Shown piece after piece: positions 11,172 to 41,439 of a DNA stretch of 64,000 nucleotides. The position numbers and the translations under genes were made by a program. The notes under the pieces are model-generated. The model was not told the DNA's origin. It saw only the letters and a list, made by a program, of their open reading frames with translations, and made no database searches. Every line of letters begins with the position of its first letter. Within the stretch, counting starts at the first letter, position 1. Origin of the DNA: Candidatus Doudnabacteria bacterium (lineage in GTDB: Bacteria > Patescibacteriota > Doudnabacteria > UBA920); the NCBI GenBank assembly GCA_963837465.1, contig CAWINB010000004.1, positions 724,393 through 788,392 on the forward strand, given 5' to 3'.

Positions 11172-11547
11172 TTTGATTAAATTCTTGTCGCAGTTTTTCT
11201 ATAAAGATTTTTTCCTCCGGCGAAAAATGGTTATACCGGACGCCTTTAAAATCGTACGGATTATAACCGGTAATATGACGAAGCCACCTATAAGCGGCTT
11301 CGCGATCAATTTCCATATAGTTTGAATCCGATTTTGATATTTCCTGTTCTATTTTTCTGACATAAAAACTTAGGATCAAAAGTTCTTTATTAGTTAAATT
11401 TTCTAACTCAAAGATGTTATTTATGTATAAACGAGCCCTCGCCAACTTGCGGCTAAATTCACTTTTTCCCTCAAAAGCTTCCTTGTCTAAGGGGTTATCG
11501 CTTTCAATTTCCATTTTTCCATTCGCGTGACCGATTAATTTAACCAT
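11140..11547 (-). CDS. hypothetical protein
   Basis: 135-aa ORF between prfA and prmC. It overlaps the prmC start by about 30 bp. No family recognised. Confidence 0.4.
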   Translation of the reverse strand: MVKLIGHANGKMEIESDNPLDKEAFEGKSEFSRKLARARLYINNIFELENLTNKELLILSFYVRKIEQEISKSDSNYMEIDREAAYRWLRHITGYNPYDFKGVRYNHFSPEEKIFIEKLRQEFNQNDDTGSFEKS

Positions 11548-11556
11548 AGAAAAAAA

Positions 11557-12627
11557 TTATTTTTTTAATGCTTCCTTCTTCGCTTCCAAATCCGCTCTTT
11601 GCAAAGCGTCTATTATATCGGCAAATTTTCCTTCCATTATCAAATTTATCTGGTTGAAGTTTTCGTTTATGCGATGGTCCGTAACTCTATCCTGCGGGAA
11701 GTTGTAGGTGCGGATTTTTTCACTGCGGTCGCCGGTGCCAATTTGCGACTTGGTAAGGTCGCGGACTTTTTTGCTCTCAATCTGTTCGTAATGGGCGGCG
11801 ACTCGCGCGCGGATTACGGCCAGGGCTTTTTCCCTGTTTTGGGCCTGGGAGCGTTCGTCCTGGCATTGGGCGGTTATGCCGGTGGGAATATGCGTAATGC
11901 GGATGGCAGAATAAGTCGTGTTCACCGATTGCCCGCCGTGTCCGCTGGAAGTTGTCGCTTCAATTTTTAAATCTTTGTCCGCGATGGCGTAATCTTTTTC
12001 CTGCAAAATTGGCAAAACCGCCACCGTAATTGTAGATGTATGCACGCGTCCGGATTTTTCCGTATCCGGAACCCTTTGCACGCGGTGCACGCCGGATTCG
12101 TACTTAAGCATTTGGTATGGGTGATGCTCCGCGGAAACCCGTCCGTAAATTTCAAAAATCACTTCTTTGAATCCGCCGGCATCGCTTTTTGACGAAGAAA
12201 CAATGTGCGGTTTAAAGCCAAAACTCTCCGCGAATTTGCCGTAAGCCCTGAACATTTCCGCCGCAAAAAGCGTAGCCTCGTCGCCCCCGGCTCCGGCGCG
12301 GATTTCCACAATCACGTTTTTGTCGTCGTTGGCATCGTGCGGTAGGAGCATCTCTTCAATTTTAGATTTAAGGTCTAAGATTTTTGATTCCAGTCGCCGT
12401 CCTTCGTCCAAAGCCATGCTTTTAATTTCCGCGTCGCTGTCCGTTAAAAGTTTTTGGTTGCCTTCCAGCTCTTTTTCCAGTTTTTCCGCTTCCCGGATTT
12501 TTTCCACAATAGGCATCAGCCGCGCCTGCCTTTTTCCCAACTTGGCCATGTCGAAACCGCCGCCCTGGGACATATCCAGGGTCAGCTGGTTGTATTCGGT
12601 TAGGATTTTTTGAAAAGAAGTTTCCAT
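11557..12627 (-). CDS. prfA: peptide chain release factor 1
   Basis: GGQ motif (SSGHGGQSVNTT) and the RF1-type PxT-region RVPDTEKSGRVHTS. The start is taken at METSFQKIL (12627). Confidence 0.9.
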   Translation of the reverse strand: METSFQKILTEYNQLTLDMSQGGGFDMAKLGKRQARLMPIVEKIREAEKLEKELEGNQKLLTDSDAEIKSMALDEGRRLESKILDLKSKIEEMLLPHDANDDKNVIVEIRAGAGGDEATLFAAEMFRAYGKFAESFGFKPHIVSSSKSDAGGFKEVIFEIYGRVSAEHHPYQMLKYESGVHRVQRVPDTEKSGRVHTSTITVAVLPILQEKDYAIADKDLKIEATTSSGHGGQSVNTTYSAIRITHIPTGITAQCQDERSQAQNREKALAVIRARVAAHYEQIESKKVRDLTKSQIGTGDRSEKIRTYNFPQDRVTDHRINENFNQINLIMEGKFADIIDALQRADLEAKKEALKK

Positions 12628-12644
12628 AATATTACACAGATCAC

Positions 12645-12676
12645 AGATAAGCACAGATTCACAGATTGATTATCCG
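12645..12676. repeat. four direct cacagat repeats spaced 7-10 bp, immediately upstream of prfA
   Basis: cacagat occurs at 12645, 12652, 12662 and 12670. Confidence 0.6.
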
Positions 12677-20962: not shown

Positions 20963-22108
20963 ATGAAGAAGCAAGAAATTGGTGTTTATATAAAACAGAC
21001 CGAAGGCTTTAAGGCTTTTGTCCCTTATCCTTTTCCACCAAACGGCGGCTTTGACTTTGGCCATGAGATATTAAAGAAAAATGACCAGGCAAGCAGGTTA
21101 CTGGGAAAACTGGATGGCATTACCAAGTTGTTGCCGGATTCAGACTTCTTTTTGCTTATGTATTTAAGAAAGGATGCCGCTTCTTCCAGCCAGATTGAAG
21201 GAACCAGGGCTACCATGATAAATGCCATAGAAGCGGAAGCTAAAGTAAGCGGCAACGTGCCCGCGGACGTAGACGACATTTTGCATTATATAAAAGCCCT
21301 AAACTACGGCATGAAACGGGTGGTTGCGGATGAGTTTCCTGTGTCACTTCGCTTTTTAAGAGAGCTGCATAAAAAACTCATGGACCAAGCCAGGGCAACT
21401 CATTTTTCCGACCCCGGAGAATTCCGCAAAACACAAAATTGGATTGGCGGGAATAAACCAGGCAACGCCAGTTTTGTCCCTCCGCCCGTTTCAGAAATGC
21501 ATCGCGCGTTAAATGACTTGGAAAAATTTATGCATTCGCGGGACGCCACCCTGACGCTAATTAAAGCCGCTCTGCTTCACGCGCAATTTGAAACTATCCA
21601 CCCGTTTTTGGACGGTAATGGCCGCACCGGAAGGATGCTGATAACTTTTTACTTGTGGAAAGAAGGTTTTCTGGAAAAACCCGTTTTGTTCTTGTCTTCC
21701 TACTTCAAAAAATTTCAACAGGTTTATTATCAAAAATTGTTTGGCTACCACCATGGTGAAGTTGAGTTTTGGGTTGATTTTTTTCTGGACGGAGTTATTG
21801 AAATTGCCAACGAAGCCATAGACATTGTAGGAAAAATTACCACTCTCAGAGAACAAGACATGCAAAAAATACAAAAGCTGGGAACTCGCGCCTCGGAAAG
21901 CGCTGCCTCTATTTTACCTAAATTGTACGGACAGCCAATTGTTAATAACGCGTTAGTACAAAAATGGACCGGCTTTACCCGGGCAGGCGCTCAAAGAGTG
22001 ATAGATAGATTTATTAAAATGCGGATTCTTTTGCCTAAAGACCAGGACATAAAATACGGGCAATCTTACGCTTATACAAAATATATTGCCATTTTTGGGA
22101 ATAAGTAG
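20963..22108 (+). CDS. Fic/DOC-family adenylyltransferase (Fic_N + Fic domains)
   Basis: The Fic motif HPFLDGNGRTGRML is present. Confidence 0.85.
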   Translation: MKKQEIGVYIKQTEGFKAFVPYPFPPNGGFDFGHEILKKNDQASRLLGKLDGITKLLPDSDFFLLMYLRKDAASSSQIEGTRATMINAIEAEAKVSGNVPADVDDILHYIKALNYGMKRVVADEFPVSLRFLRELHKKLMDQARATHFSDPGEFRKTQNWIGGNKPGNASFVPPPVSEMHRALNDLEKFMHSRDATLTLIKAALLHAQFETIHPFLDGNGRTGRMLITFYLWKEGFLEKPVLFLSSYFKKFQQVYYQKLFGYHHGEVEFWVDFFLDGVIEIANEAIDIVGKITTLREQDMQKIQKLGTRASESAASILPKLYGQPIVNNALVQKWTGFTRAGAQRVIDRFIKMRILLPKDQDIKYGQSYAYTKYIAIFGNK

Positions 22109-22115
22109 AATTACC

Positions 22116-22442
22116 ATGAACGAAGCCGAAACAAGAGCTGAATATGTTGACCCAAAACTAAAGGCGGGCGGCTGGGGCGAGACCGAAGGATCAAAAGTCC
22201 TGCGGGAATTTCGTATTACCGAAGGGCGTATCCAAGTCGGCGGGGAGCGCGCCAAACCGGAAATTGCCGATTATATTTTGGTTTATAAAAACCAAAAGCT
22301 CGCGGTTATCGAAGCAAAAAAAGAAGACCTTTTGCCAACCGAAGGCGTAGCCCAGGCCATAGCCAGAAATTGTTCCCAGCAGGAGAAGTTTTTAACCCGA
22401 TACTCGCCCCTGTACCTGGCAACACATTTATTGAATTTGTAA
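22116..22442 (+). pseudogene. N-terminal fragment (about 108 aa) of a type I/III restriction endonuclease R subunit
   Basis: MNEAETRAEYVDPKLKAGGWGE...ADYILVYKNQKLAVIEAKK is the conserved HsdR/Res N-terminal nuclease-domain start. The ORF terminates early. Confidence 0.55.
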
Positions 22443-26522: not shown

Positions 26523-28064
26523 ATGGCTACAAAAACTAAAAATGGTACATCGGCAAACATAGGTTTTGAAGAAAAGCTTTGGGCCACAGCGGATAAAATG
26601 CGCAACAATATGGACCCGGCCGAATATAAGCACGTTATTCTGGGGCTTATATTTTTAAAGTATATTTCCGACTCTTTTGAAGAACTCTATCAAAAGTTAA
26701 AAACTGATTCTGAATCCGATCCGGAAGATAAAGACGAGTATTTGGCGGAAAACGTTTTTTGGGTGCCGCAGGAGGCACGCTGGAACTATTTACAGGATAA
26801 CGCCAAAAAGCCCGGTATCGGCACTTTGGTAGATGGGGCTATGGTCGCCATTGAAAAAGAAAACCCCACGCTTCGGGGCGTGCTGCCAAAAATTTACGCG
26901 CGCCCGGACCTGGACAAAACCAGGCTCGGTGAAATAATAGATTTAATGAGTTCCCTTGGCCTGGGGGATAACGAAAGTAAGGCTAAGGATTTGTTGGGCC
27001 GGGTATATGAATATTTCATCGGCCGCTTTGCCAGCGCCGAGGGTAAGGGTGGCGGAGAATTTTTTACTCCGCGGTCTGTTGTAAAATTACTGGTGGGAAT
27101 GATTGAGCCTTATAAAGGCAGAATTTATGATCCCTGCTGCGGCAGTGGTGGTATGTTTGTGCAGAGCGAGAAATTTGTGGAAGCGAACGACGGCCGCAAA
27201 GGGGATATTGCGGTGTACGGACAGGAGTTAAATCCTACTACCTGGCGCTTGTGTAAAATGAACCTGGCTATTCGCGGTATAGAAGGAAATATCGGGTCGC
27301 AGCATGCCGATTCGTTCCATAATGACCAGCACAAAGACTTAAAAGCGGATTTTATCTTGGCCAATCCGCCATTTAATATCAGCGATTGGGGAGGGGAGCG
27401 CTTGCGCGATGATGTCCGCTGGCAATACGGCGTGCCGCCAACCGGTAACGCCAACTATGCCTGGATTCAGCATATGGTTTACCATCTTGCTCCAACCGGT
27501 ATAGCCGGTTTTGTTATGGCTAATGGCAGTCTTTCTTCCAATACTTCCGGCGAAGGTGAAATTAGAAAAAATTTAATAGAAAAAGGTTTGGTCGATTGTA
27601 TTGTAGCCATGCCCAGCCAACTTTTTTATACCACACAAATTCCGGCCTGTTTGTGGTTTGTGTCCCGCGACCGTTACGATCACAAATTCCGCAACCGCCA
27701 CGACGAAATACTGTTTATAGACGCCCGTAAAATGGGCGCTATGGTTAGCCGCAAAAACCGCGAATTTGCCGCGGAAGATTTAAACAAAATCACCGGTACC
27801 TACCACAACTGGCGCAACGTCAACGGTAAATACCAGGACGTAAAAGGCTTCTGCAAAGCCGCCAAAATTACGGAAGTGGAAAAAGCCGGCTTCGTCCTAA
27901 CCCCCGGCCGCTATGTTGGCTCGGAAATTGTGGAAGAAGACGATGAAGTCTTTGGAGAAAAAATGAAGCGATTGACCACGGAACTATCAAGCCAATTTAA
28001 GGAATCTAAAGAGCTGGAAGAAAGAATAAAGAAAAATTTGGATTCAATAGGGTTTAAAATATAA
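26523..28064 (+). CDS. hsdM: type I restriction-modification system methyltransferase subunit
   Basis: HsdM N-terminal domain, the motif [13 protein letters not shown], and the FxGxG AdoMet region. Confidence 0.9.
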
Positions 28065-28071
28065 ATAGCAT

Positions 28072-28713
28072 ATGTTGATATTTATTGACGAATCCGGGGA
28101 TCCTGGGTTAAAACTTGGTGAAGGTTCAAGTAAATATTTTACTGTGGCTTTAGTAGTGTTTGAGGAAAATGATGAAGCGCTTGCTTGCGACCAAAAGATT
28201 GAATTGTTCAAGCGAGAATTGGGATGGAAGCCAAAAAGCGAATTTCATTTTAAAAATAACTCAGACAGAGTCCGCAAAGGCTTTTTGCAGGCAGTCGCGC
28301 CGTACAATTTTTTTTATTATGGAATTGTTTTAAACAAAGACCCTAAAAAGTTATGGGGCGAAGGATTTAAGGACAAGCAATCCTTTTACAAATACGCTTG
28401 CGGCCTGGTTTTTGAAAATGCAAAACCCAAACTTACAGAAGCAACAGTTATTATTGATGCCAGCGGCAGTTTGGATTTTAAAAATCAGCTGACTAAATAC
28501 CTGCGCCGCAAATTTAATGAGCAAGGAAATTCAGGTTCTAAAATAATCAAAAATGTAAAGATGCAACGCTCGGAAAGTAATAATTTATTGCAGCTGGCGG
28601 ATTATATTGCAGGCGTAATTAACCGCTCAATCAATAACACTAAAAAATACTCCGGCGATTACAGAAAGCTTATAGCTCACAGGGAGATAAGGGTACAAAT
28701 TTGGCCAAATTAA
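28072..28713 (+). CDS. DUF3800-family protein embedded between hsdM and hsdS
   Basis: N-terminal IFIDESGD and C-terminal LLQLADYIAG signatures. It starts 8 bp after the hsdM stop. Confidence 0.6.
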   Translation: MLIFIDESGDPGLKLGEGSSKYFTVALVVFEENDEALACDQKIELFKRELGWKPKSEFHFKNNSDRVRKGFLQAVAPYNFFYYGIVLNKDPKKLWGEGFKDKQSFYKYACGLVFENAKPKLTEATVIIDASGSLDFKNQLTKYLRRKFNEQGNSGSKIIKNVKMQRSESNNLLQLADYIAGVINRSINNTKKYSGDYRKLIAHREIRVQIWPN

Positions 28714-28886
28714 AACTTCCGACCCTATCCCTTGCGGGAACGCGGCGATAAACGCCACAGTTCAGATCGGAAGCGATTCCATTGTTATTATATCTGACTA
28801 TTAACCTTTGTCAAGAACTGTTAAGACTTGTTAAGCAATTATTCCCTTAATAACAAAAAAAGCCTATAATTAAGGCACTATAATTA

Positions 28887-28914
28887 CCGCAAAATGCCTA
28901 AAGGCATTTTGCGG
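28887..28914. promoter_or_regulatory. perfect 12-bp-stem hairpin ccgcaaaatgcc-taaa-ggcattttgcgg in the hsdM-DUF3800 / downstream-operon spacer
   Basis: Seen directly. It is preceded by tataat-like boxes (cctataattaagg, cactataatta). Confidence 0.45.
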
Positions 28915-28927
28915 TCAAAAACCAGTT

Positions 28928-29257
28928 TTGTCAAACAAGTTTATGAAAAAAGGCTCAAAAAAAGAACTGGAAATTAGCGCGAAAGATCTAAAAACCATTT
29001 TTGGCAAAGACTATAAAAAATTCCAGACAAAAATACTCACCAACTGTTTTTGTATGAACTGCGCAGATAAAAAAGCAAACGCAACAATAATAAACTATAA
29101 AATAATCCTCAACCCCCTAAACGACCTAACCCTCCTCGGCTCCTGCAAAACCTGCGGCTCCAGAATTAACCGATATGTGGAGACTGGGGAAGTGAAGGGG
29201 TATGCGGGAAGGATTAAAAAAATAAGAAAAACATATGACGACTCTGGAAAAAATTAA
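28928..29257 (+). CDS. hypothetical zinc-ribbon protein
   Basis: Contains CFCMNC...CKTCG. It is translationally coupled to downstream ORFs. Confidence 0.4.
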   Translation: MSNKFMKKGSKKELEISAKDLKTIFGKDYKKFQTKILTNCFCMNCADKKANATIINYKIILNPLNDLTLLGSCKTCGSRINRYVETGEVKGYAGRIKKIRKTYDDSGKN

Positions 29258-29552
29258 TCTATGGCAGGCCATATTTACCGGTGTGGCAGTTTTGGTTGCC
29301 GGTGTTGCAACTTATTTGGCTTATAAAATTGGCAAAAAACAGAATAAAATAAATGAGATTGCTTTAAGTATTACCAATTTTGTAGAAATATTTTTGATGC
29401 CGCAACAGGTAATTCTAGAAAATGAACTTAAAGAAAGAATTATCAAATGGAGCATTCTTAATAAAAAATGTCAGCTCTTATCCAATATACTTAAACGAAT
29501 ACAGTCTCAACGGGCTGAAAAATCACGTGGGGAGCAGTGCGATACCAAATGA
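29235..29552 (+). CDS. hypothetical single-TM protein
   Basis: TM helix AIFTGVAVLVAGVATYLAY. Its 3' part overlaps the next ORF in another frame (possible frameshift or overlap). Confidence 0.3.
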   Translation: MTTLEKINLWQAIFTGVAVLVAGVATYLAYKIGKKQNKINEIALSITNFVEIFLMPQQVILENELKERIIKWSILNKKCQLLSNILKRIQSQRAEKSRGEQCDTK

Positions 29553-29724
29553 TTTAGACAGTTGGTATACGGTCCCAATCCCCGAAGATGTACAAACTAA
29601 AGGCGAATTTTCTTTGATCGTTGAATTTGAAGACTACTTGGGTAAAAAATACAAGGCGGAAGGTTTTGGAATTTTTAGAGGCACAGGCTGGGAAATAAAA
29701 TCCAAAAAGAGAATTGAAATATGA
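29422..29724 (+). CDS. hypothetical protein
   Basis: 100 aa, ending 3 bp into hsdS. Confidence 0.3.
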   Translation: MNLKKELSNGAFLIKNVSSYPIYLNEYSLNGLKNHVGSSAIPNDLDSWYTVPIPEDVQTKGEFSLIVEFEDYLGKKYKAEGFGIFRGTGWEIKSKKRIEI

Positions 29725-30980
29725 AACAAATCACTACAAAATTCAAACAAACCGAAATCGGCCTTGTTCCGGAAGAATGGGATGTTTTAAAGGTGTCTGA
29801 TGTTGCAGTGGTGGATGAAGAAGTTATTTCAAAAAATGATAATTTTAGCGAAATTCAGTACTTGGACGTTGCGGCAACAGATCAAGGACAGGTACTAGAA
29901 GTTCAAAAACTAAATCTAGCAGATGCTCCAAGTCGTGCCAAAAGAAAAGTCAAAGACAATGACATTTTAATATCCACAGTAAGGCCAAATTTAAAACATT
30001 ATACTTTTATTAAAAAAGCGCCAAATAATCTAGTGGCTTCTACTGGTTATGCGGTAATAAGTTCAAAAAAAGCAGATCCAAGATATTTATATTACGCTTT
30101 AACAACAGAAGAATTTACAGAATTTCTTGGAAGAATTGCGGATAGCCATACTTCGACTTATCCAGCAATTAATCCAGATGTGATCGAAAACGCTTTAATA
30201 GCAGTACCATCAATAACCGAACAAAAACAAATCGCGGAGATTCTTTGTTCTTTGGACGACAAAATAGAACTGAACCGCAGAATGAATAAAACTTTAGAAG
30301 CAATCGGACAGGCAATTTTTAAACGGTGGTTTGTGGATTTTGAATTCCCAAACGAACAAAGCAAACCTTACAAATCGTCGGGTGGGGAAATGGTAGAAAG
30401 CGAATTGGGTGAAATTCCGAAAAATTGGAATGTTGGAAAGCTAAGTGATATTGCTAATATAATTATGGGCCAATCGCCAAAATCTAAATATTATAATAGC
30501 AATAAAGAAGGTTTGCCGTTTTATCAAGGCGCAACGGATTTTGGAGATCGTTTTCCTACTGAGCGTGTCTATTGCATAAAAAATAGCAGGGTTGCAGAAG
30601 AAAATGATATATTGATGAGTGTTCGCGCTCCTGTAGGGAGAATTAATGTTGCAAACGGCAAACTATCCTTAGGAAGAGGAGTTTGCGCAATGCGCAGCAA
30701 AATTGGAAGTCAGTCACATTTATTGTATTTATTAAAAGTGTTTTTCCATACAGAAGATATTATAGGCGATGGCTCAGTTTTTGCTTCTGTAGCGCGCGAT
30801 GAGCTTTCAAAAATACCGGTTATAGTACCCCCACAAGAGATTGTTAATTTATTTGAAAGAATTACCGGGCAGACGGATAGACAATATGAACTACTAGCAA
30901 AAGAGAATACTAACTTATCCCAAATCCGAGACTCGCTTTTGCCTCGGTTGATGAGTGGAAAAATTAGAGTAATTATATGA
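29721..30980 (+). CDS. hsdS: type I restriction-modification system specificity subunit (two target-recognition domains)
   Basis: Duplicated TRD architecture with conserved spacer helices and a C-terminal ...LPRLMSGKIRV. Confidence 0.85.
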   Translation: MKQITTKFKQTEIGLVPEEWDVLKVSDVAVVDEEVISKNDNFSEIQYLDVAATDQGQVLEVQKLNLADAPSRAKRKVKDNDILISTVRPNLKHYTFIKKAPNNLVASTGYAVISSKKADPRYLYYALTTEEFTEFLGRIADSHTSTYPAINPDVIENALIAVPSITEQKQIAEILCSLDDKIELNRRMNKTLEAIGQAIFKRWFVDFEFPNEQSKPYKSSGGEMVESELGEIPKNWNVGKLSDIANIIMGQSPKSKYYNSNKEGLPFYQGATDFGDRFPTERVYCIKNSRVAEENDILMSVRAPVGRINVANGKLSLGRGVCAMRSKIGSQSHLLYLLKVFFHTEDIIGDGSVFASVARDELSKIPVIVPPQEIVNLFERITGQTDRQYELLAKENTNLSQIRDSLLPRLMSGKIRVII

Positions 30981-31732
30981 TTAGACTTGTTGTGAATTTA
31001 ACATTTTTAGAAAAAATTAAATCTGGGGATTTTCTGACTTTTTTTGCGGTTGTCCTCGCATATCTTGCTTATTCAAAATCAATAAATGATAAATATGAAT
31101 CTTGGCGGTCATTGCTTTTATCTCTCAAGGCTGATTTAGAAAGCCAATCTGCATGGCTGTCTTCTGAATATAAAGAAGAAACTTATAAAGATAAGACTGC
31201 TTTTTCTCCTAGAAAAATTATTTTCCCCCTCTCGTTTAAATCGTTAGAAGAAATAATAAGTCGTGGCGCTAGCGATTTTAATTTTTCGGAAAAATTTATA
31301 AAAAATATTTCAATTTTTGATGAAAGAATAGAAACATTTAACAAGCTCCTTGAACAGCAGAGGCTGAATGTAACTGCAAATCCTGTATTAACACATAATT
31401 TGGTAGAAATTTTGGATTCAAATGGGGCTTGTGATTGCGCCACAACTTATGATAATTTTTTTCAATCTATTGAGAATATGAAGGTTTCTCAGCCGGATTG
31501 TTATGCTTTAGCCAAAAGAATACACTCAATTAATAGGATTATACATATCAACATCATATCAAACGAGGACGACGAAAGCGGCCTGCACTATCTATACAAA
31601 TATTTGTTAAATGAAGTACAAAATAAGCTTTCTAATCTAGAAAAATCTAAGCCGTGGCATTTAAGGTATAAATGGCCGCTATTGATTCTTGGATGCGTTT
31701 TGTTTATTCTTATTGAATCGTTACTAAAATAA
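30977..31732 (+). CDS. hypothetical membrane protein (TM helices at both ends) embedded between hsdS and hsdR
   Basis: 251 aa. It overlaps the hsdS stop by 4 bp and ends 4 bp before hsdR. Confidence 0.45.
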   Translation: MIRLVVNLTFLEKIKSGDFLTFFAVVLAYLAYSKSINDKYESWRSLLLSLKADLESQSAWLSSEYKEETYKDKTAFSPRKIIFPLSFKSLEEIISRGASDFNFSEKFIKNISIFDERIETFNKLLEQQRLNVTANPVLTHNLVEILDSNGACDCATTYDNFFQSIENMKVSQPDCYALAKRIHSINRIIHINIISNEDDESGLHYLYKYLLNEVQNKLSNLEKSKPWHLRYKWPLLILGCVLFILIESLLK

Positions 31733-31735
31733 TAT

Positions 31736-34700
31736 ATGTCAACTTACAAATATACCGAATCAGATTTTGAAGAAGCAACATTGGAATGGCTCCAAGAGCT
31801 TGGTTTTAATATTGCTTTTGGGCCGGATTTAGCGCCGGAGGGGGAGAGTGCGGAGAGGGAAAGTTATGGGGATGTGGTTTTGGTGGGGAGGCTTAGGGCG
31901 GCTGTTGAACGGATTAATCCTGGGGTGCCGGAAGCGGCTAGGAATGATGCTGTGGAGAAGGTTTTGGGTTTGCCCTGGATGAAGCCGAACTTGATGGGGG
32001 TGAATGAGATTTTCCATAAATGGTTGGCGGAAGGGGTGGATGTTACGGTAAAGGAGAAGGATGGTTTTGTGCGGGGAGATAAAGTTTATTTAATAGATGA
32101 GAAAAATTTAAAGAATAACGACTGGTTAGCGGTTAACCAGTTTACGGTTATAGAAAATAACAATAATCGGCGCCCGGATGTTGTGGCTTTTGTGAATGGG
32201 TTGCCGCTGGCAGTTTTTGAGTTAAAAAATCCGGCTAATCCGAATGCTCCAATTGGGGATGCTTTTAACCAGATTCAGACTTACAAAAAAGAAATTCCAT
32301 CTTTATTTGCTTATAACGAACTGTGCGTAATTAGCGACGGAGTGGAAGCTAAGCTCGGCAGCTTTGGCGCGGATTTGGATAGGTTTATGAAGTGGCGGAC
32401 AATAAACGGCGGAGACGTAGAGCCAAAGTCGCGGCCGGAAATGGAAGTTTTGCTTCGCGGGGTGTTTGAAAAACAAAGATTTTTGGATATCGTTAAAAAC
32501 TTTATAGTTTTTGAGGCAACGGAAAAAGAAACCATAAAAAAACTGGCAGCTTACCACCAGTATTATGCCGTGAACAAGGCCCTGCAAAAAACCGTGGAAG
32601 CTACAGCCGAAAATGGCGACAGGCGTTGCGGTGTGGTTTGGCACACACAAGGGTCGGGGAAAAGCTTGAGTATGGTATTTTATGCCGGAAAAGTTATTCA
32701 GACTTTAAACAATCCAACTATAGTTGTGCTAACTGACAGGAATGACTTAGACGGCCAATTGTTTGATGTGTTCGGCAAGTGCAAAGAGCTGCTGCGTCAA
32801 ACCCCGGTGCAGGCGGAAAGCAGGGCGAATTTAAAGGACTTGTTAAAAGTCGCTTCCGGGGGCGTAGTGTTTACAACTATCCAGAAATTTTTTCCGGATA
32901 ACAACGCGCAACAACATCCATTACTTTCTGACAGAAAAAACATTGTAGTAATCGCGGACGAAGCGCACAGAAGCCAGTACGACTTCATAGACGGCTTTGC
33001 CCGGCATACGCGCGACGCTTTGCCCAATGCCAGCTTTATTGGCTTTACCGGCACGCCCATTGAACACACCGACGCCAATACCCGCGCCGTGTTTGGTGAA
33101 TATATAGACATTTACGATATTGCCCGCGCGGTGGAAGACCATGCCACCGTGCCAATTTACTACGAGGCCCGTTTGGCCAAAATAGATTTACCGCCATCGG
33201 AAAAGCCAAAAATAGACAGCGAGTTTGAAGAAATAACCGAAGGCGAAGAAACAGAAAAGGTAGAAAAACTAAAAAGCAAATGGGCGCGGTTTGAAGCTAT
33301 GATTGGCGCGGAAAAAAGAATTCAGCTGATAGCCAAAGACATTGTAGAGCATTTTGAAAACCGTTTGGGAGTTATAGACGGCAAGGGAATGGTTGTTGCC
33401 ATGAGCAGGCGGATTGCTGTTGAGCTGTACGAAGAAATCATCAAACTAAGGCCTCAGTGGGCAACTGCCGACGACCAAACCGGCTTTTTAAAAGTAGTTA
33501 TAACCGGTTCCGCGGCGGACCCGGCAAACTTTCAGCCGCATATTCGCGCCAAACCCGAGCGGGAAAAAATGGGCGACAGAATGCGCGACCCAAAAAACGA
33601 ATTAAAATTGGTAATTGTGCGCGATATGTGGCTAACGGGTTTTGACGTGCCCAGCATGCACACCATGTACATAGACAAACCTATGAAAGGCCACGGCCTT
33701 ATGCAGGCCATTGCCCGAGTCAACAGAATTTACAAAGACAAACAAGGCGGCTTGGTAGTGGATTATTTAGGAATTGCCCAGCAGCTTAAAGAAGCAATGG
33801 CAGATTATACCGACAGCGAGCGCGAAGCGCCAACTATACCGCAGGAAGAAGCGGTAAGTATACTGCTGGAAAAGTATGAAGTCATAAAAGGCTTATTCCA
33901 CGGCTTTGATTACTCCAAATATTTTACCGGCACTAAAGCCAGTCAAAACCAGGTTATGGTTGCGGCGGTGGATTTTATCTTAAAGCCGCAAGATGGCAAA
34001 AAAAGATTTCTGCAGTCCGCGCGGGAACTGTCTTTTGCTTTTTCGCTTTCCGTTCCAAATGATCAGGCTTTAAAAATTCGCGACCAGGTTGCTTTTTTCC
34101 AGGCCGTACGCGGCTATTTGATTAAACTGGAAAGCGGCGGCGGTCTCGGCGGCCCCACGCGGCACGATTACGACATGGCCATTAAACAAATAGTGGCCAA
34201 TGCCATAACCTCCACCGAAGTTATAGACGTTTTTACCGTGGCCGGTTTAAAACGTCCGGACATTTCTATCTTATCCGACGAATTTTTGGAAGAAGTAAAA
34301 AATCTCGAACACAAAAATTTGGCTTTGGAACTTTTAAAGAAACTCCTCAACAACGAAATTCTAACTTTGCAGAAAAAGCATTTGGTAAAATCACGCCTAT
34401 TTTCCCAAATGCTGGAGGAAACATTAAGGAAATATCAAAACCAAACTATAGAATCCGCGCAGGTTATTGCCGAACTCATTGAGCTGGCCAAAAAAATTCG
34501 TGCCGACCAGAACAGGGGAGTGGATTTAAAGCTTTCCGATGACGAAGTTGCTTTTTATGACGCCCTGGCTGATAATGAAAGCGCGCAGGAATTAGGGGAC
34601 GAAACCCTAAAACAAATTGCCCGGGAGCTGGTCCAATTATTGCGGAAAAATACCACCATAGACTGGACGCTTAAAGAAAGCATTCAGGCAAAGCTTAGGG

Positions 34701-34873
34701 TGATGGTCAAAAAACTTTTACGCAAATACCAATATCCTCCAGACAAGCAGGAAAGCGCTGCGAAGTTGGTTTTGGAACAAGCGGAAATTTTATGCAAAGA
34801 TTGGGACGGAGAAGAATTGCCAAAATACAGCTATCATTTTGTGAAAGAAGAAAGAGCTCTTTATAACTCATAA
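31736..34873 (+). CDS. hsdR: type I restriction enzyme R subunit
   Basis: SF2 helicase motifs ([23 protein letters not shown]), an N-terminal nuclease domain, and 1045 aa in total. Confidence 0.9.
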
Positions 34874-34880
34874 ATAGCTT

Positions 34881-35144
34881 ATGAACAAATACGAGCGTAT
34901 TCCCGAATATGTTTTAGATCTTCACGGGTTTACTACCAGGGAGGCTAAGGAGGTTTTGGATGATATTGTAGAGGAGGGTAGGTTTAGGCATATCCGGGTT
35001 ATTACCGGCAAAGGGACTTTTCGGGAGACCGGGCCGGTGATGAGGAATTTTGTGGAGGGGTATTTGAGGCGGCACGAAATTAGGTTTGAGACGGCTAAGC
35101 TTTATAATGGCGGCGATGGCGCGCTTGAAGTTTACTTTGAATAA
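34881..35144 (+). CDS. Smr-domain protein
   Basis: LDLHGFTTREAKEVL...IRVITGKG. Confidence 0.55.
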   Translation: MNKYERIPEYVLDLHGFTTREAKEVLDDIVEEGRFRHIRVITGKGTFRETGPVMRNFVEGYLRRHEIRFETAKLYNGGDGALEVYFE

Positions 35145-35157
35145 TCGGAATATTTTT

Positions 35158-35352
35158 ATGAACGGACAAAACAGGGAAGATGTACGAATTGGCCTGACTG
35201 TGGATATTGCGCTTAAGCAGGATCAGGGAAGCGGAAAATTAACCCGTGGTATTATAGCGGACATTTTAACCAACTCCGGTTTTCATCCGCATGGAATTAA
35301 AGTAAGGCTGGAGGGCGGCGAGGTCGGCAGGATCCAAAATATTTTAAAGTAA
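35158..35352 (+). CDS. YwbE-family small protein
   Basis: MNGQNREDVRIGLTVDIALKQDQGSGKLTRGII...HPHGIKVRL matches the YwbE signature. Confidence 0.55.
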   Translation: MNGQNREDVRIGLTVDIALKQDQGSGKLTRGIIADILTNSGFHPHGIKVRLEGGEVGRIQNILK

Positions 35353-35354
35353 TT

Positions 35355-36599
35355 ATGGAAACAAAAATAATTCAAACCAAGGTTTGTATAGCCGGCGGGG
35401 GACCGGCCGGAGTTTGCTTAGGCTATCTTTTGGCGCGGGCGGGGATTGAAGTTGTGGTTTTGGAAAAATGGCCGGATTTTTTTAGGGATTTTCGGGGCGA
35501 TACTATCCATCCGTCTACAATGGAAGTTTTGGGGGAGCTGGGGCTTTTGGAGGAGTTTTTAAAGCTGCCGCATAATGAAGTGAAAAAGATATTTGGCATT
35601 ATCGGCGGCCAGGAAGTACAGATGGCGGACTTTACGCATTTAAAAGTCCGTTGTCCTTTTGTGGCGCTGATCCCGCAGTGGGATTTTTTAAATTTTATCG
35701 CAGGGCATGGGCGGAAGTATCCTCAGTTTAAGCTGATGATGGAAACAGAGGCCGTGGATATTATAGATGAAAACGGAATAATCGTCGGCGCGCGCGCGAA
35801 ATCCAAAACCGGGGAGCTGGAAATTCGGGCGGAATTGGTGGTTGGCGCCGACGGTCGGCATTCCATAGTGCGGGAAAAAAGCGGACTTGCCGCCAGGGAG
35901 CTTGGCGTACCCATAGATGTTTTGTGGTTTAAGCTCACCCGGCTGGCATCGGATCCTGAGCAATCCATGGGAAACGCGGACCGCGGCAGGCTTATGGTAA
36001 TGCTGGACAGGGGCGATTATTGGCAATGCGCGTTCGTGATTAAAAAAGGCGCACTCGGAGAATTTAAAAATTCGGGTTTGCGGGCTTTTCGCCGGGATGT
36101 GGAAAAGTTGGTGCCGTTTTTGGCCGGCCGTATGGAAGAAATTAAAGATTGGGACCAGGTTAAATTGCTCAGCGTAACCGTGGACCATTTGCAAAAATGG
36201 TACAAACCGGGACTGGTTTGCATTGGTGACTCGGCGCACGCTATGTCGCCGATTGGGGGAGTCGGGATTAACCTGGCCATTCAGGACGCGGTGGCGGCCG
36301 CTAATATTTTAATTCCAAAATTTAAGCAGGGAAGCGTTGAATCAAAAGATTTGGCTGCCATACAAAAACGCCGGCAAAGCCCGACGCTCAAAACCCAAAA
36401 GCTGCAGTTGTTTTTGCAAAATCATATTATCAGCAGAGTTTTGGATTCCGAGCGGCATATAAATCTACCCCTGTTTTTCAGGATCCTCCGGCGTTTTCCT
36501 TACTTAACCCGTTTTCCTGCCCGGGCTTTGGGCCTGGGATTTCGCGCTGAACACGTCAATTATTTAAGTTATTACGCGGGGGCGGAAAAACCATTATGA
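35355..36599 (+). CDS. FAD-dependent (group A flavin) monooxygenase
   Basis: N-terminal GGGPAGVCLGYLLARAG Rossmann motif, plus DGRHSIVRE and GDSAHAMSPIGG motifs. Confidence 0.7.
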   Translation: METKIIQTKVCIAGGGPAGVCLGYLLARAGIEVVVLEKWPDFFRDFRGDTIHPSTMEVLGELGLLEEFLKLPHNEVKKIFGIIGGQEVQMADFTHLKVRCPFVALIPQWDFLNFIAGHGRKYPQFKLMMETEAVDIIDENGIIVGARAKSKTGELEIRAELVVGADGRHSIVREKSGLAARELGVPIDVLWFKLTRLASDPEQSMGNADRGRLMVMLDRGDYWQCAFVIKKGALGEFKNSGLRAFRRDVEKLVPFLAGRMEEIKDWDQVKLLSVTVDHLQKWYKPGLVCIGDSAHAMSPIGGVGINLAIQDAVAAANILIPKFKQGSVESKDLAAIQKRRQSPTLKTQKLQLFLQNHIISRVLDSERHINLPLFFRILRRFPYLTRFPARALGLGFRAEHVNYLSYYAGAEKPL

Positions 36600-37366
36600 A
36601 AAAACCAACAACTTCCTGGGGCAAAGTAGCCGGGTGGTATGACAAACTTTTGGAAGATAATAGTGAAAGTTACCAGGAAAAATTAATTAAGCCCAATTTA
36701 TTGCGGATGTTGGGTATTAAGCCCGGGCAGCAGGTTTTGGATGTGGGCTGCGGCCAGGGGTTTTTTGGGCGGGCCATGGCGGCGGAGGGTGCTGTAGTAG
36801 TGGGTATAGATGTAGCGGGCGAACTTGTAAAAATAGCCAAGGGCAACGCCGGCGGAAATGAAACTTATTTAACAATGTCGGCGGAAAAAATGAGCGGCCT
36901 TGTGGCCGGGCGGTTTGACGCGGCTGTTTGCGTGCTGGCTTTGCAGAACATTAAAAATTTTCAGGCCGCGATTTTGGAAATCGCCCGTGTGTTAAAAAAA
37001 GGCGGACGGTGCCTGCTTGTGCTGAACCATCCGGCGTTTAGGGTACCCACGGCTTCTTCCTGGGGTTATGACCAAGGCAAAAATATCCAATACCGCCGCG
37101 TGGATAAATATTTGTCCGAAATTGCCCAGGCGGTTGATATGACGCAGGGCGAAAAAAACCCAAAAAACAAAAAATTTACGTATTCTTTCCATCGGCCGCT
37201 GCAGCTGCATTTTAAAACTTTTGCCAAGGCCGGTTTTTGCGTCCTTCGCTTGGAGGAGTGGACCTCCCACAAAACCAGCGACAAAGGACCCCGTAAAATC
37301 GCGGAAGACATGGCTCGCTATGAGATACCATTGTTCATGGCTTTGGAATTAAGCAAGATATTTTAA
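36596..37366 (+). CDS. class I SAM-dependent methyltransferase
   Basis: VLDVGCGQGFFG motif I. It overlaps the monooxygenase stop by 4 bp. Confidence 0.7.
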   Translation: MKKPTTSWGKVAGWYDKLLEDNSESYQEKLIKPNLLRMLGIKPGQQVLDVGCGQGFFGRAMAAEGAVVVGIDVAGELVKIAKGNAGGNETYLTMSAEKMSGLVAGRFDAAVCVLALQNIKNFQAAILEIARVLKKGGRCLLVLNHPAFRVPTASSWGYDQGKNIQYRRVDKYLSEIAQAVDMTQGEKNPKNKKFTYSFHRPLQLHFKTFAKAGFCVLRLEEWTSHKTSDKGPRKIAEDMARYEIPLFMALELSKIF

Positions 37367-37459
37367 AAAGTTACTTATATATAAGTAGTTTTCTGTGGAT
37401 AACTTATGAGAAATATATAAATAAAGCAGTAAATACGGCATTTTACAAAAAGTGAACGA

Positions 37460-38164
37460 ATGTTCATAATTAAAGCAGGGTTCATTATTAATGCCGAGAA
37501 AATGTCTATTCCGAATCTTCATAAAATTGAACAGCCCCGCGAACGTCTGCAAAAATACGGTATGGGCAGATTATCCAATCCACAGCTTTTGGCTGTTATG
37601 CTGGGTAGCGGCGTAAAGGGGAAAAATGTTCTGGATTTGTCCGCGGGAATTTTCAGGCAGTTTAAGGACAACAGGCTGGCCAATGCCAGCTTGCCGGAGC
37701 TGGAAAAAGTCTACGGGCTTGGGCCGGCCAAGGCTTGTGAAATTGTGGCATGCTTTGAGCTCGGCAGGCGCCTGCTTAAAGACAAACAGGTGCAGTTGCT
37801 GCTTTCGCCCCGGGAAGTATGGCAGCAGCTGTCCGACATCCGCGCCAGTAAAAAAGAACACTTCGTGGTTTTTTTCTTGGACACGCAAAGTCAGCTGGTT
37901 AAAAGGGAAATAATCACCATAGGCACTCTTAATTCCAGTTTAATTCATCCACGGGAAATTTTTGAGCCGGCTATTAAGCATTTGGCTTCCCATATTATTA
38001 TTGCCCATAACCATCCATCCGGCAGTCTTGAGCCGAGTCCGGAGGACATTAGCGTCACCAAAAGGCTGGCCGATATAGGACGGCTCCTGGATATGGAAGT
38101 TATGGATCATGTTATCGTTACTTTAAAAGGTTATGTCAGTTTTAAGGAAAAGAATTTGCTGTAA
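37460..38164 (+). CDS. radC: RadC-like JAB-domain protein
   Basis: HNHPSGSLEPSPEDI (JAMM motif) and an N-terminal HhH region. An alternative start is at 37505. Confidence 0.8.
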   Translation: MFIIKAGFIINAEKMSIPNLHKIEQPRERLQKYGMGRLSNPQLLAVMLGSGVKGKNVLDLSAGIFRQFKDNRLANASLPELEKVYGLGPAKACEIVACFELGRRLLKDKQVQLLLSPREVWQQLSDIRASKKEHFVVFFLDTQSQLVKREIITIGTLNSSLIHPREIFEPAIKHLASHIIIAHNHPSGSLEPSPEDISVTKRLADIGRLLDMEVMDHVIVTLKGYVSFKEKNLL

Positions 38165-38191
38165 GTTGTAATTGAAATCTGTTTTAAAAAT

Positions 38192-38413
38192 ATGCAGAAT
38201 GTATTTACCAAAAATTTTCGCGTCCAGATTTGGTTTGACGCGCCGCCTGACAAAATTTTGCTGGGAACAATATCGCTTTGCGCCCAGGATGAGGAATCGG
38301 CCATGAGGCTGGCCCGCGCGCACACCAGTTATTGTCAGTCCGGAACCGATAACATAAACTGGACACTGGAAGAACGGGGCAGGCTCTATATATGTTTGGG
38401 CAAAGCGGTTTAA
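38192..38413 (+). CDS. small hypothetical protein, paralogue of 23040..23237
   Basis: See 23040..23237. Confidence 0.5.
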   Translation: MQNVFTKNFRVQIWFDAPPDKILLGTISLCAQDEESAMRLARAHTSYCQSGTDNINWTLEERGRLYICLGKAV

Positions 38414-38422
38414 AATTAATTA

Positions 38423-40402
38423 TTGTTTGCTATGGACGACCAGCAAAAGCCAAAGTTTGGCATGGCCGAGCTGCGCAAAACTTATCCACGCGCGGGCATG
38501 AAATGGGATAAGGAAGAAGATCAAAGGTTGCAAAGGCTTTATATTGATCATCGCGAAAGCGCGAGCGGGGATTTTGAAGTTTTTGTCAGGGGTTTATCCC
38601 GGCAATTCGGCCGCGCTGCCGGCGGGCTTAAAGCCAGGCTGGCTATGCATTTTGACGATGTTCCCGGCTGGGATTACGGCCGGGATCAATTTAGGGCTGA
38701 GGAGTTAAATAAACGCACGGAGGAAGCGTTGCCCTCGCTTCATGACGAATTGCTTAAAACCGAATATCAGCGGTACGTTAAAAATAAGGACCAAACTTAC
38801 CATGCTTTTTTAAAGCAGTTGTCCGCGCGTTTAGGCGGAGTAAAAGGCGAGCTTATCCGTAACCGATTGGAGCAGCTGGCAGGTATGGTTCAAAAGTATG
38901 GCCGGGAAGATATCGGTTTCAGTACTCCGGCATCGCGGCTTGCCGGCCGCAAAGGAAGCGAAATCCCGCGGTTGGATATCAGCGGCAATTCTTTGGCCCA
39001 GGAGGCTTTGCGTCTGATGAACGAAACCTCCCAAAATCTTTTCCTAACCGGCGAAGCCGGCACCGGCAAATCCACGCTTTTAAACTATTTCCGCAAAACG
39101 GCCAAAAAGAACGTTGTAGTCTTGGCGCCCACAGGCGTGGCCGCGCTGAACGTGGAAGGCCAGACCATCCATTCATTCTGCGCTTTTGGCCCGGACATTA
39201 CCCCGCGAAAGGTAAAAAAATTGTCGCCCTGGTCGGCCAAAAAAAAACTTCTGGAAAAACTCAACACCATAGTTATAGATGAAATTTCCATGGTCCGCGC
39301 CGATTTGCTTGACTGCGTGGATAAATTTTTGCGTTTGAACGGCTTAACCAACCAACAGCCTTTTGGCGGCTATCAAATGGTCTTTATCGGCGACCTGTAC
39401 CAGTTGCCGCCTGTGGATAAAGATTTTGGCGCAGGTGATGGTTTAATAAAAGAATACAACAGCCCCTATTTTTTTGAAGCAAGAGCCTTTAAAAGTTCGG
39501 TTTTTGAGTTTATTGAGCTAAAAACCATTTATCGCCAAAAAGACCGGGTGTTTAAGGACTTGCTTAATGCCGTGCGCAATAACGCGGCAACCTCGGAACA
39601 TTTAACTTTGCTGAACCGTCGCGCTTTGGACGAAGGCGAAAAATTTACTTTTGAAGAATTTGCCATTTATCTCACTCCTCACAATGCCAGGGCTCGGCAA
39701 ATAAATAATTTTTTCCTGGAACGCGTACAATCGCCCGTAAAAGTTTATATGGGTACCGTTAAGGGAAGTTTTGAAGGTCGGGAACTGCCCACGGACTTGG
39801 AACTGAACGTTAAATCCGGAGCCCAGGTTATGATGCTTAACAACGACAGCCGCAGGCGGTGGGTTAACGGGACAATGGGAAAAATTGTCAGGGTGGAAAA
39901 GTCTGTGGCGGAGAATGATAGTAATAATCGGGACAATAATTACTATAGCAAGGATGATAATTTTATTATAGGAGATGAAGCTGTGGCCGACAGATTTATT
40001 GTCCCAAAAGATGATAGCGACACAAGCTCAAGTCCGGACGTCATTGTTATAGAGCTGGAAACGGGTTAGACGGTGTATGTTGAGCCACATACCTGGGAAA
40101 TGTTTAAATTTATTTTGGATAAAGACACACAAAGCGTAGACAGCGAGGCAACCGGAACTTTTAGCCAGTATCCTTTTAAGCTGGCCTGGGCGGTTACCAT
40201 CCACAAAGCCCAGGGCAAAACTTTTGATAAGGTTTATGTGGACCTTTCAACCGGCACTTTTGCCCACGGACAGCTTTATGTCGCCCTTTCCCGCTGCCGC
40301 ACGCTGGAAGGCTTGTATCTGAAGCGCCCCATTGCTTCCCGGGACATAATTTTAGACGACCGCATAGTCAAATTTTTGGAAAGTTTTACGGCTCCAAATT
40401 GA
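38423..40402 (+). pseudogene. Pif1/RecD-like helicase with a roughly 200-aa N-terminal extension, interrupted by an in-frame TAG at 40067-40069
   Basis: Walker A GEAGTGKST, DEISM and GDLYQLPPV motifs lie upstream of the stop. [13 protein letters not shown] and LYVALSRCR lie downstream in the same frame. Conservation continues across the stop. Confidence 0.65.
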
Positions 40403-40486
40403 AATTAAAAACCAATTTTATAAGGGGCTCACGATTTATAAAAATGTAAGTAAATTTTATAAGTTTGGCTTATCCACAAGCAAAAT

Positions 40487-40519
40487 TTGACATATGGTGA
40501 ACGCTGGTTTACTATAATA
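40487..40519 (+). promoter_or_regulatory. strong sigma70-like promoter (ttgaca ... tactataat) with a roughly 120-nt GC-structured leader before 40639
   Basis: Hexamers were seen directly. The leader contains nested complementary segments (cagcaa...ttgctg, ctgcgg...tcgcag). Confidence 0.4.
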
Positions 40520-40638
40520 AAGTAGATGTCCTCGGAACTTTGCCCGGGGTTTACAGCAACTCCTTTGCGGTCTGCGGTTCATACCTCGCAGTTTGCTGAG
40601 GGGGCAATTGATTTAAAATATTATTATCGCGAGAAAAA

Positions 40639-41439
40639 ATGAAAAATTTTTATTATTTAGCAACTGTTTTTGGTGTTTTGATGTTCCTGGGCATACCTGG
40701 CAGAAGCTTGGCTGCGGGACAAAAAACTTTAACCGGCACGGTAACCGGTATAAGCCCAAGCGGTATTGGGTTTACAAACAGCACGGCCGCTACTTACACT
40801 GCCGAACTTGGCTCCGCGGTTCTGTCGCGCAAGAACGGCGCGGCTATGCAATTTTCCGATATCATTGTCGGCGACAAGGTGCAAGTCACCGGTGTATTGT
40901 GGCCGGACAACAGCATGAATGCTGTAAATTTTAAAGACCTGTCTTTGTATGCCCACAACAGCAGCTTTAGCGGAAAAATTATCGGCATAAATCCCATCGA
41001 CTTAAGTTTTATAATCCAAAACAAGCAGCAGGGCATCCAGACCGTGCTTACAAATAATTTTACCTCCTTTAGTAAAAACGGCAGCTTGGCCGCTTTTGGC
41101 GATCTTGCGCTAGGCATGGGAACAACGGTAAAAGCGATGTGGGACCGGAATCCTGATACCCTGACGGCTACGCGAGTGCAGGGCAGTTTCCGCCTGATTG
41201 ACATTTATTTTACCGGCAACCTGTCTATAAAAAACGGCAACAGCATAACCGTGGTGGGAAACGGCAATGTACTTTATGGAGTGGACACCACTAACGCCCA
41301 ACTGGAAAATAAAAACGGCAAAGCGGCGGTTTTGGCCCGTTACAACGTCGGAGACATCGTAAAAGTTTGGGGTAAGCATTTGTCCGGAAGCGTGCGGGTA
41401 ACCGGCTCTTTGGTCAAAGACTCCTCGGTTTTAAATTAA
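40639..41439 (+). CDS. secreted hypothetical protein (signal peptide, Gly/Ser/Thr/Asn-rich beta domain)
   Basis: N-terminal signal peptide. It shares a short beta-domain pattern with 42807.. and 47773.. Confidence 0.5.
   Translation: MKNFYYLATVFGVLMFLGIPGRSLAAGQKTLTGTVTGISPSGIGFTNSTAATYTAELGSAVLSRKNGAAMQFSDIIVGDKVQVTGVLWPDNSMNAVNFKDLSLYAHNSSFSGKIIGINPIDLSFIIQNKQQGIQTVLTNNFTSFSKNGSLAAFGDLALGMGTTVKAMWDRNPDTLTATRVQGSFRLIDIYFTGNLSIKNGNSITVVGNGNVLYGVDTTNAQLENKNGKAAVLARYNVGDIVKVWGKHLSGSVRVTGSLVKDSSVLN

Follow-up and report, generated by a model that had tools for sequence, protein, structure and literature searches.

An isolated in-frame TAG replaces a conserved glutamate codon in a predicted Pif1-family helicase gene of Candidatus Doudnabacteria

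Analysis of a 64,000-nucleotide (64-kb) stretch from a Candidatus Doudnabacteria bacterium (assembly GCA_963837465.1, contig CAWINB010000004.1, positions 724,393 to 788,392 of the forward strand; hereafter "the window", with position 1 as its first letter) shows that a gene for a predicted Pif1-family helicase carries a single in-frame TAG codon. The TAG is isolated, and the rest of the helicase gene is intact and highly conserved. We interpret the stop as a recent single-base nonsense mutation (Glu546 to TAG) that inactivates a Patescibacterial Pif1 helicase, a reading to which we assign a probability of about 0.7. A preliminary description of the same DNA had placed a nonsense mutation, an error and readthrough side by side; the first of these is now favored, the second is weakened by an identical contig in the Logan collection, and the third is left without support.

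Read in one frame, positions 38423 to 40402 comprise 660 codons, among which the TAG at 40067-40069 is the sole internal stop. It directly follows ...VIVIELETG (the upstream piece ends ...SSSPDVIVIELETG). The gene had been described as starting at 38423, and a TTG at this position is the first possible start, but the ATG at 38432 (MDDQQ...) agrees better with the database protein P0001 and with the N-termini of homologs, and is probably the true start. The parts of the gene that matter for the argument are the following.

38432 to 40066, forward strand: 5' piece of the helicase gene, 545 codons, with the N-terminal module, domains 1A and 1B, the first half of 2A and most of 2B
39050 to 39073, forward strand: Walker A (motif I), GEAGTGKS, residues 207-214, in invariant columns
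40067 to 40069, forward strand: in-frame TAG in place of a conserved Glu codon, as judged by homolog alignment, ortholog DNA and the Logan contig L001
40070 to 40402, forward strand: 3' piece of the helicase gene, 110 codons (40070-40399) plus TGA, with the rest of 2B, the second half of 2A and UvrD_C_2
40190 to 40225, forward strand: motif V, 3' of the stop, in invariant columns
40274 to 40300, forward strand: motif VI, LYVALSRCR, 3' of the stop, in invariant columns

The upstream open reading frame (ORF) matches the Pfam family PIF1 (PF05970) with 107.6 bits (cut-off 25.9, E 9.1e-31, residues 198-335) and also P-loop families related to PIF1, and the downstream 110 amino acids match UvrD_C_2 (PF13538) with 34.4 bits against a cut-off of 27.4. 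Gene callers run on the NCBI, ENA and Logan copies of this DNA gave products of 545 and 100 amino acids. The longer one is identical to P0001, the sole 100% match in our protein search, encoded on a contig of 868,218 bp; the shorter one, from the ATG at 40100, is database protein P0121 and is on record in NCBI, ENA and Logan.

The protein search covered 5.8 billion proteins and returned thousands of relatives, and alignments were made of 23 and then of 107 full-length homologs. The best full-length relatives are 57-67% identical and 630-750 amino acids long, cover 98-100% of the stop-bridged query with the N-terminal region included, and carry source labels such as "Candidatus Doudnabacteria", "Patescibacteria group" and "ATP-dependent DNA helicase PIF1". 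In both alignments the homology continues straight through the stop, as the preliminary description had claimed. The Walker B motif (motif II, DE; DEISMVRADLLD, residues 283-294) is invariant or nearly so, and the Pif1 signature that we sought between motifs II and III (...DKFLR...PFGG.Q....GD..QLPPV) is present as DKFLRLNG...PFGGYQMVFIGDLYQLPPV, likewise in invariant or nearly invariant columns. Upstream and downstream of the stop alike, the window sequence keeps all invariant columns, and there is no further lesion. Motifs I-VI lie on a single polypeptide in 107 of 107 homologs. Here, motifs V and VI are perfectly conserved but lie beyond the TAG, and are therefore not in one polypeptide with motifs I-IV.

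The predicted structure agrees with the sequence. An AlphaFold model of the intact ortholog P0002 (67% identical; mean predicted local distance difference test score, pLDDT, 84.8) has the Pif1 fold, with domains 1A, 1B, 2A, an SH3-like 2B and a C-terminal domain, and Foldseek aligns it to the Pif1 of Sulfurihydrogenibium (SsPif1, 8BNS) with a template modeling (TM) score of 0.88 and E 4.9e-47. The closest solved structures after 8BNS are those of the Deferribacter enzyme (DdPif1, 8BNV and 8BNX), followed by Bacteroides, Thermus, yeast and human Pif1. Judged by sequence, the gene is that of a Pif1-family superfamily 1B (SF1B; 5'-3') DNA helicase of a Patescibacteria (Candidate Phyla Radiation, CPR) bacterium, with unwinding activity predicted.

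The column occupied by the TAG holds Glu in 97 of the 107 homologs, Asp in 5, Gln in 4 and Lys in 1, and the orthologous DNAs at three loci (L002, L003, L004) have GAA at this site, so that the sense codon to be expected, which the preliminary description had left open, is one for glutamate. Since relatives have GAA, a GAG intermediate would place the TAG one G-to-T transversion away. The same description had considered that orthologs might also end at this point; we looked for this and did not see it, as 0 of 107 homologs terminate at the TAG column and none is split there or nearby.

Together, these data suggest a model for the loss of this helicase. The intact protein of the clade would have about 640-680 amino acids and would consist of a lineage-specific N-terminal tandem of Myb/homeodomain-like repeats, a Pif1 core whose nearest solved counterparts are those of Sulfurihydrogenibium and Deferribacter, and a disordered acidic loop of variable length in 2B. 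One substitution would have turned the conserved Glu codon 546 (GAG; GAA in relatives) into TAG, and translation would then stop in the middle of domain 2B, where the P0002 model places the Glu column in a turn between two 2B strands (542-547 and 552-555). The domain 2B of Pif1 is an insertion in the RecA domain 2A, and motifs IV-VI are located in 2A (PMC9964779). The 545-residue product would accordingly be made without the end of 2B, without the second half of 2A with its motifs V and VI, and without UvrD_C_2. Because these parts would be lost, the product is expected to be inactive as an ATPase and helicase; by analogy with the mechanism of SF1 helicases, it would be unable to hydrolyze ATP productively or to translocate. 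The lesion appears to be recent, because nothing else in the gene has decayed. The outcome would be a pseudogene of young age, or else a loss-of-function allele that became fixed in the population sampled. The case resembles ordinary bacterial nonsense pseudogenes, with one stop in an otherwise intact ORF, absence of this stop from relatives and normal stop-decoding machinery, and we saw no difference that would set it apart from them. The stop itself would thus be ordinary, a routine loss-of-function mutation in one metagenome-assembled genome, which speaks for annotating the locus as a pseudogene or split gene and not as a case of recoding.

Whether the TAG is real can be judged from a second assembly. 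The Logan assembly of run ERR10755945 contains an 11,600-bp contig (L001) that encodes the exact 545-residue product and is 100% identical to window positions 29456-41053 over 11,598 bases, the TAG included. The presence of the same TAG in an independent Logan assembly makes an assembler-specific artefact unlikely, and we disfavor an assembly artefact for this reason. A wider form of this explanation holds that a sequencing or consensus error produced the TAG, or that a minority allele won the consensus, and that the real codon is GAG and the helicase intact. It would account for the flawless state of the rest of the gene, with invariant residues kept on either side of the stop; the step from GAG to TAG takes only one base, and the genome is represented by a metagenome-derived contig of 868 kb. 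However, the Logan assembler arrived at the same base in an 11.6-kb contig that matches the window without a single difference, the lesion is a substitution and not a homopolymer indel, and no frameshift-type break was confirmed among the neighboring gene pairs checked by Pfam (three overlapping out-of-frame pairs, of which just one has Pfam matches on both ORFs). We regard such an error as unlikely.

Several observations weigh against a nonsense mutation nevertheless. The Logan contig may share its sequencing run with the deposited assembly, so that the TAG might still stem from a systematic read error or from a mixed population. The protein collection contains no intact allele from the same species, the 90% identity clusters of both fragments having one member each, and JGI metagenomes, scanned for the exact pattern with the mutated base set to N, gave no match. 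The closest full-length relative is only 67% identical, which leaves no near intact allele for comparison and is in our judgment too distant for a dN/dS test. Finally, an undamaged 3' piece would be equally expected if the gene were intact or if the 3' piece were under selection.

A different way to rescue the helicase would be to decode the TAG, by programmed readthrough, a suppressor tRNA or codon reassignment, so that the full-length protein is made after all. The in-frame conservation beyond the stop fits this idea, as does the base that follows it, an A (context UAG-A). The stop usage of the window does not. Among 69 non-overlapping ORFs of at least 80 amino acids, 42 end in TAA, 15 in TGA and 12 in TAG, which bears out the earlier statement that TAG is a genuine stop elsewhere. 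UAG is read by release factor 1 (RF1), and the RF1 gene prfA lies in the window itself (11557-12654, reverse strand; NF001859 with 423.8 bits against a cut-off of 400), with the PxT (here PDT) and GGQ motifs intact and the gene for the PrmC methyltransferase downstream. The only tRNA genes in the 64-kb window are those for Thr(GGT) and Tyr(GTA), and a tRNA with the anticodon CUA is absent from it. Moreover, the stop is unique to this genome, and there is thus no visible selection for a recoding site. With TAG ending 12 of 69 ORFs, RF1 encoded and tRNA-CUA absent in the window, and the stop not conserved, we reject UAG reassignment or readthrough, which we consider hardly credible.

It is also conceivable that the split gene still works, with the 545-residue piece and a second piece of 100-109 residues, restarted at GTG 40073 or ATG 40100, reassembling into an active helicase. 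The GTG is in frame and only 4 nt past the stop, termination-reinitiation over such distances is known in bacteria, the 3' piece is undecayed, and in the model the break falls in a surface turn beside the disordered loop. This arrangement would, however, divide both the SH3-like 2B and the RecA domain 2A between two chains, it has no counterpart among the 107 homologs, of which 0 are split here or nearby, and neither GTG 40073 nor ATG 40100 has the A/T-rich leader that is typical of genes in the window. A working two-piece helicase is therefore quite improbable in our estimation. A variant of this idea, a long shot, is that leaky termination or reinitiation at GTG 40073 throttles a full-length or two-piece Pif1 that is targeted to sites on double-stranded DNA by the Myb-like module. 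If true, it would be a bacterial parallel to the eukaryotic Myb-type telomere and fork-barrier proteins that work with Pif1.

In the window, a Shine-Dalgarno-like motif was seen ahead of only 4 among 40 gene starts, and A/T-rich leaders prevail; judging from these leaders, translation initiation in this genome appears to be largely independent of Shine-Dalgarno sequences.

Independently of the stop, the N-terminal part of the protein deserves attention. The preliminary description had called it novel and without recognizable family. It is true that no Pfam family describes it: a Pfam search with the N-terminal region from the window, with E-values up to 10 allowed, yielded nothing beyond a chance match to DnaG_cat_HB, and no match to Myb. 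However, the N-terminal stretch of about 160-190 amino acids is shared by over 100 homologs and conserved in more than 90, with invariant residues (W25, L33, Y37, R61, Y82) and nearly invariant ones (E29, D30, F48, F51, F59, R69), and its predicted fold is that of a Myb/homeodomain-like tandem. The two repeats are placed as follows.

38489 to 38665, forward strand: Myb/SANT-like three-helix repeat 1, residues ~20-78, with conserved W25, E29, D30, L33, Y37, F48, R61 and R69
38723 to 38896, forward strand: repeat 2, residues ~98-155, duplicated from repeat 1 and diverged from it, with three helices at 102-118, 123-133 and 139-150

In the AlphaFold model of the module (pLDDT 85.9), three-helix bundles at residues 27-73 and 102-150 are connected by a long helix (82-99). 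A comparison of the profiles of the two repeats by hhalign gives a probability of 96.8% (E 2.4e-10), and the module is, on the strength of this similarity, best described as an internal duplication of a three-helix bundle. The predicted bundles contain a helix-turn-helix and are nearest in fold to Myb domains and homeodomains. At the sequence level the relation is faint, without a significant match to a Myb/SANT family model. A search of the module profile against the PDB gave 9 weak matches, 5 of them to Myb chains (E 0.16-4.5). When 30 clade members were compared with Pfam, Myb_DNA-binding (PF00249) was hit by 10 of 30 (best E 0.005) and Myb_DNA-bind_6 (PF13921) by 9 of 30 (best E 0.00057), these being E-values and not scores against curated cut-offs.

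In comparison with established Myb/SANT domains and homeodomains (c-Myb R1-R3, Rap1, Reb1, SNAPC4 and the DNA-binding domain of Timeless), the module opens with W-x3-EED-x2-L-x3-Y, which is typical of Myb, but it has Phe or other residues in place of the second and third tryptophans of Myb repeats, and its repeat 2 is without the first Trp. The aromatic core residues (W25, F48/F51 and F59 in repeat 1; Y112/Y115 and F126 in repeat 2) have a Myb-like, but not a canonical, spacing. We therefore regard the module as a predicted tandem of Myb/SANT-like repeats of homeodomain fold, which belongs to this group by modeled structure and not by sequence family. We infer that it binds DNA or targets the helicase to DNA.

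A phmmer search of the module against 1.84 billion representative sequences found 17 clusters, 15 of which have representatives shorter than 500 amino acids; as there are only 17, the module is narrowly distributed. A single module match lies within a much larger protein (P0136, 964 amino acids; residues 744-775, three stretches, E 2e-5), which by its sequence may be another setting in which the Myb-like repeat occurs. Some close relatives of the helicase core (P0078, P0089, P0092, P0102-P0105 and P0110; 575-596 amino acids) share 63-69% identity with about 72% of the query. They show no alignment over the Myb-like N-terminus, yet they are longer than the core, and may carry a different accessory domain.

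The closest characterized relatives put this architecture into perspective. The cores of SsPif1 and DdPif1 are 45% and 42% identical to P0002 in the Foldseek alignment, the phmmer E-values are 3.9e-134 and 2e-114, and the TM scores against the P0002 model are 0.88 and 0.86. The domain order 1A/1B/2A/2B/UvrD_C_2 and motifs I-VI are shared. The two enzymes differ from the clade described here in their ends: they carry a C-terminal WYL domain and an N-terminal tail of only about 20 amino acids, whereas the clade has no WYL domain and instead has the N-terminal tandem Myb-like module of about 160 amino acids. SsPif1 also lacks the disordered 2B insert of 12-105 amino acids that the clade has, and the window copy is additionally shortened by the TAG. 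The Bacteroides enzymes (BaPif1/BsPif1; 5FHD, 5FTB) share the SF1B core (E about 6e-78, TM score 0.85), and BaPif1 has a 2B SH3 domain with a protruding hairpin as well, but in this case the core alone is in common, as BaPif1 has neither the N-terminal module nor the acidic insert. A C-terminal WYL domain has been noted for the closest characterized bacterial Pif1s, and the in vivo roles of bacterial Pif1s are largely unknown (PMC9964779). A literature search yielded few papers; the module is absent from these, and none of them connects Pif1 to Patescibacteria or to an N-terminus of Myb type. What may be modestly new is thus a Patescibacteria clade of Pif1 helicases with an unannotated, duplicated Myb/homeodomain-like N-terminal module, which replaces the WYL domain at the C-terminus of the closest characterized bacterial Pif1s. 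If the module binds DNA, it would be a new means by which a bacterial Pif1 is recruited.

The low-complexity insert just upstream of the stop had been described as unusual, an impression that does not survive comparison with the clade.

39902 to 40039, forward strand: low-complexity insert rich in Asp, Asn and Ser, residues ~491-536, placed within a loop of the SH3-like domain 2B

The segment from WVNGTMGK to ELETG is 56 amino acids long in the window copy, and it measures 12-105 amino acids (median 49) in the 107 homologs, across which Glu, Ser, Asp and Gly abound in it. In SsPif1 the insert aligns to a gap, with residues 313 and 314 contiguous, and in the ortholog model it has a pLDDT below 50 and is predicted to be disordered. 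The insert is a clade-wide hypervariable disordered loop that is unrelated to the stop, and its length and disorder are typical of the clade.

The helicase gene had been reported as lying next to RadC, and a RadC family gene is in fact found immediately upstream.

37460 to 38164, forward strand: RadC family gene (Pfam RadC, E 5.8e-41; NCBIfam PRK00024, 223.9 bits against 180)

The adjacency is, however, a matter of loose synteny only. Among the five distinct other loci that bear the module, RadC is within 6 kb of the helicase in two (L002 and L003), and not in L004/L005, L006 and L007. The matches listed in a contig scan for Pif1 loci were for the most part core-only Pif1s of many different phyla, with the source genome not among them; RadC was near 4 of about 80 core-only Pif1 loci among the matches listed. 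Because RadC accompanies only 2 of 5 module loci, we rejected a functional RadC-Pif1 system. The region is variable and also gathers toxin-antitoxin genes, and the adjacency amounts to loose local synteny. Genes for DUF5666 and a UbiE-like methyltransferase recur at L003 in a different order.

Membership in a defense system was rejected as well, since PADLOC matched the generic SF1B core only in part, and to proteins of much greater length; RadC, a 73-residue ORF and DUF5666 had no match in PADLOC. This 73-residue ORF (38192-38413) lies between RadC and the helicase and is among the genes called in the Logan contig. Neither Pfam nor PADLOC gives a match for it, and it is dissimilar to the 81-residue ORF at the equivalent position in L002. 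At the ortholog loci, the intact helicase is found amid Phd/ParE, PemK, Fic and RhuM genes (L002, 9459-10074; L003, 8913-9275; L004, 4985-5992 and 7989-8387), which suggests that the ortholog neighborhood is variable and rich in mobile elements.

Some features elsewhere in the window are noted for completeness. On the reverse strand, 10326-12654 holds prfA (11557-12654), a 135-residue ORF (11140-11547) and prmC (10326-11171); the ORF between the two genes has no Pfam match and overlaps prmC by 32 nt. A Fic/DOC gene at 20963-22108 is overlapped out of frame by a 118-residue ORF (22086-22442) that matches only a fragment of the HSDR_N domain and may be what is left of a second HsdR gene. The lowest guanine-plus-cytosine content of the window, 0.364-0.366 as compared with about 0.45 elsewhere, is found at 28-32 kb. 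The low-GC stretch (28000-34873) contains type I restriction-modification genes, namely HsdS (29721-30980), a 251-residue ORF (30977-31732) and HsdR (31736-34873), and looks like an acquired island.

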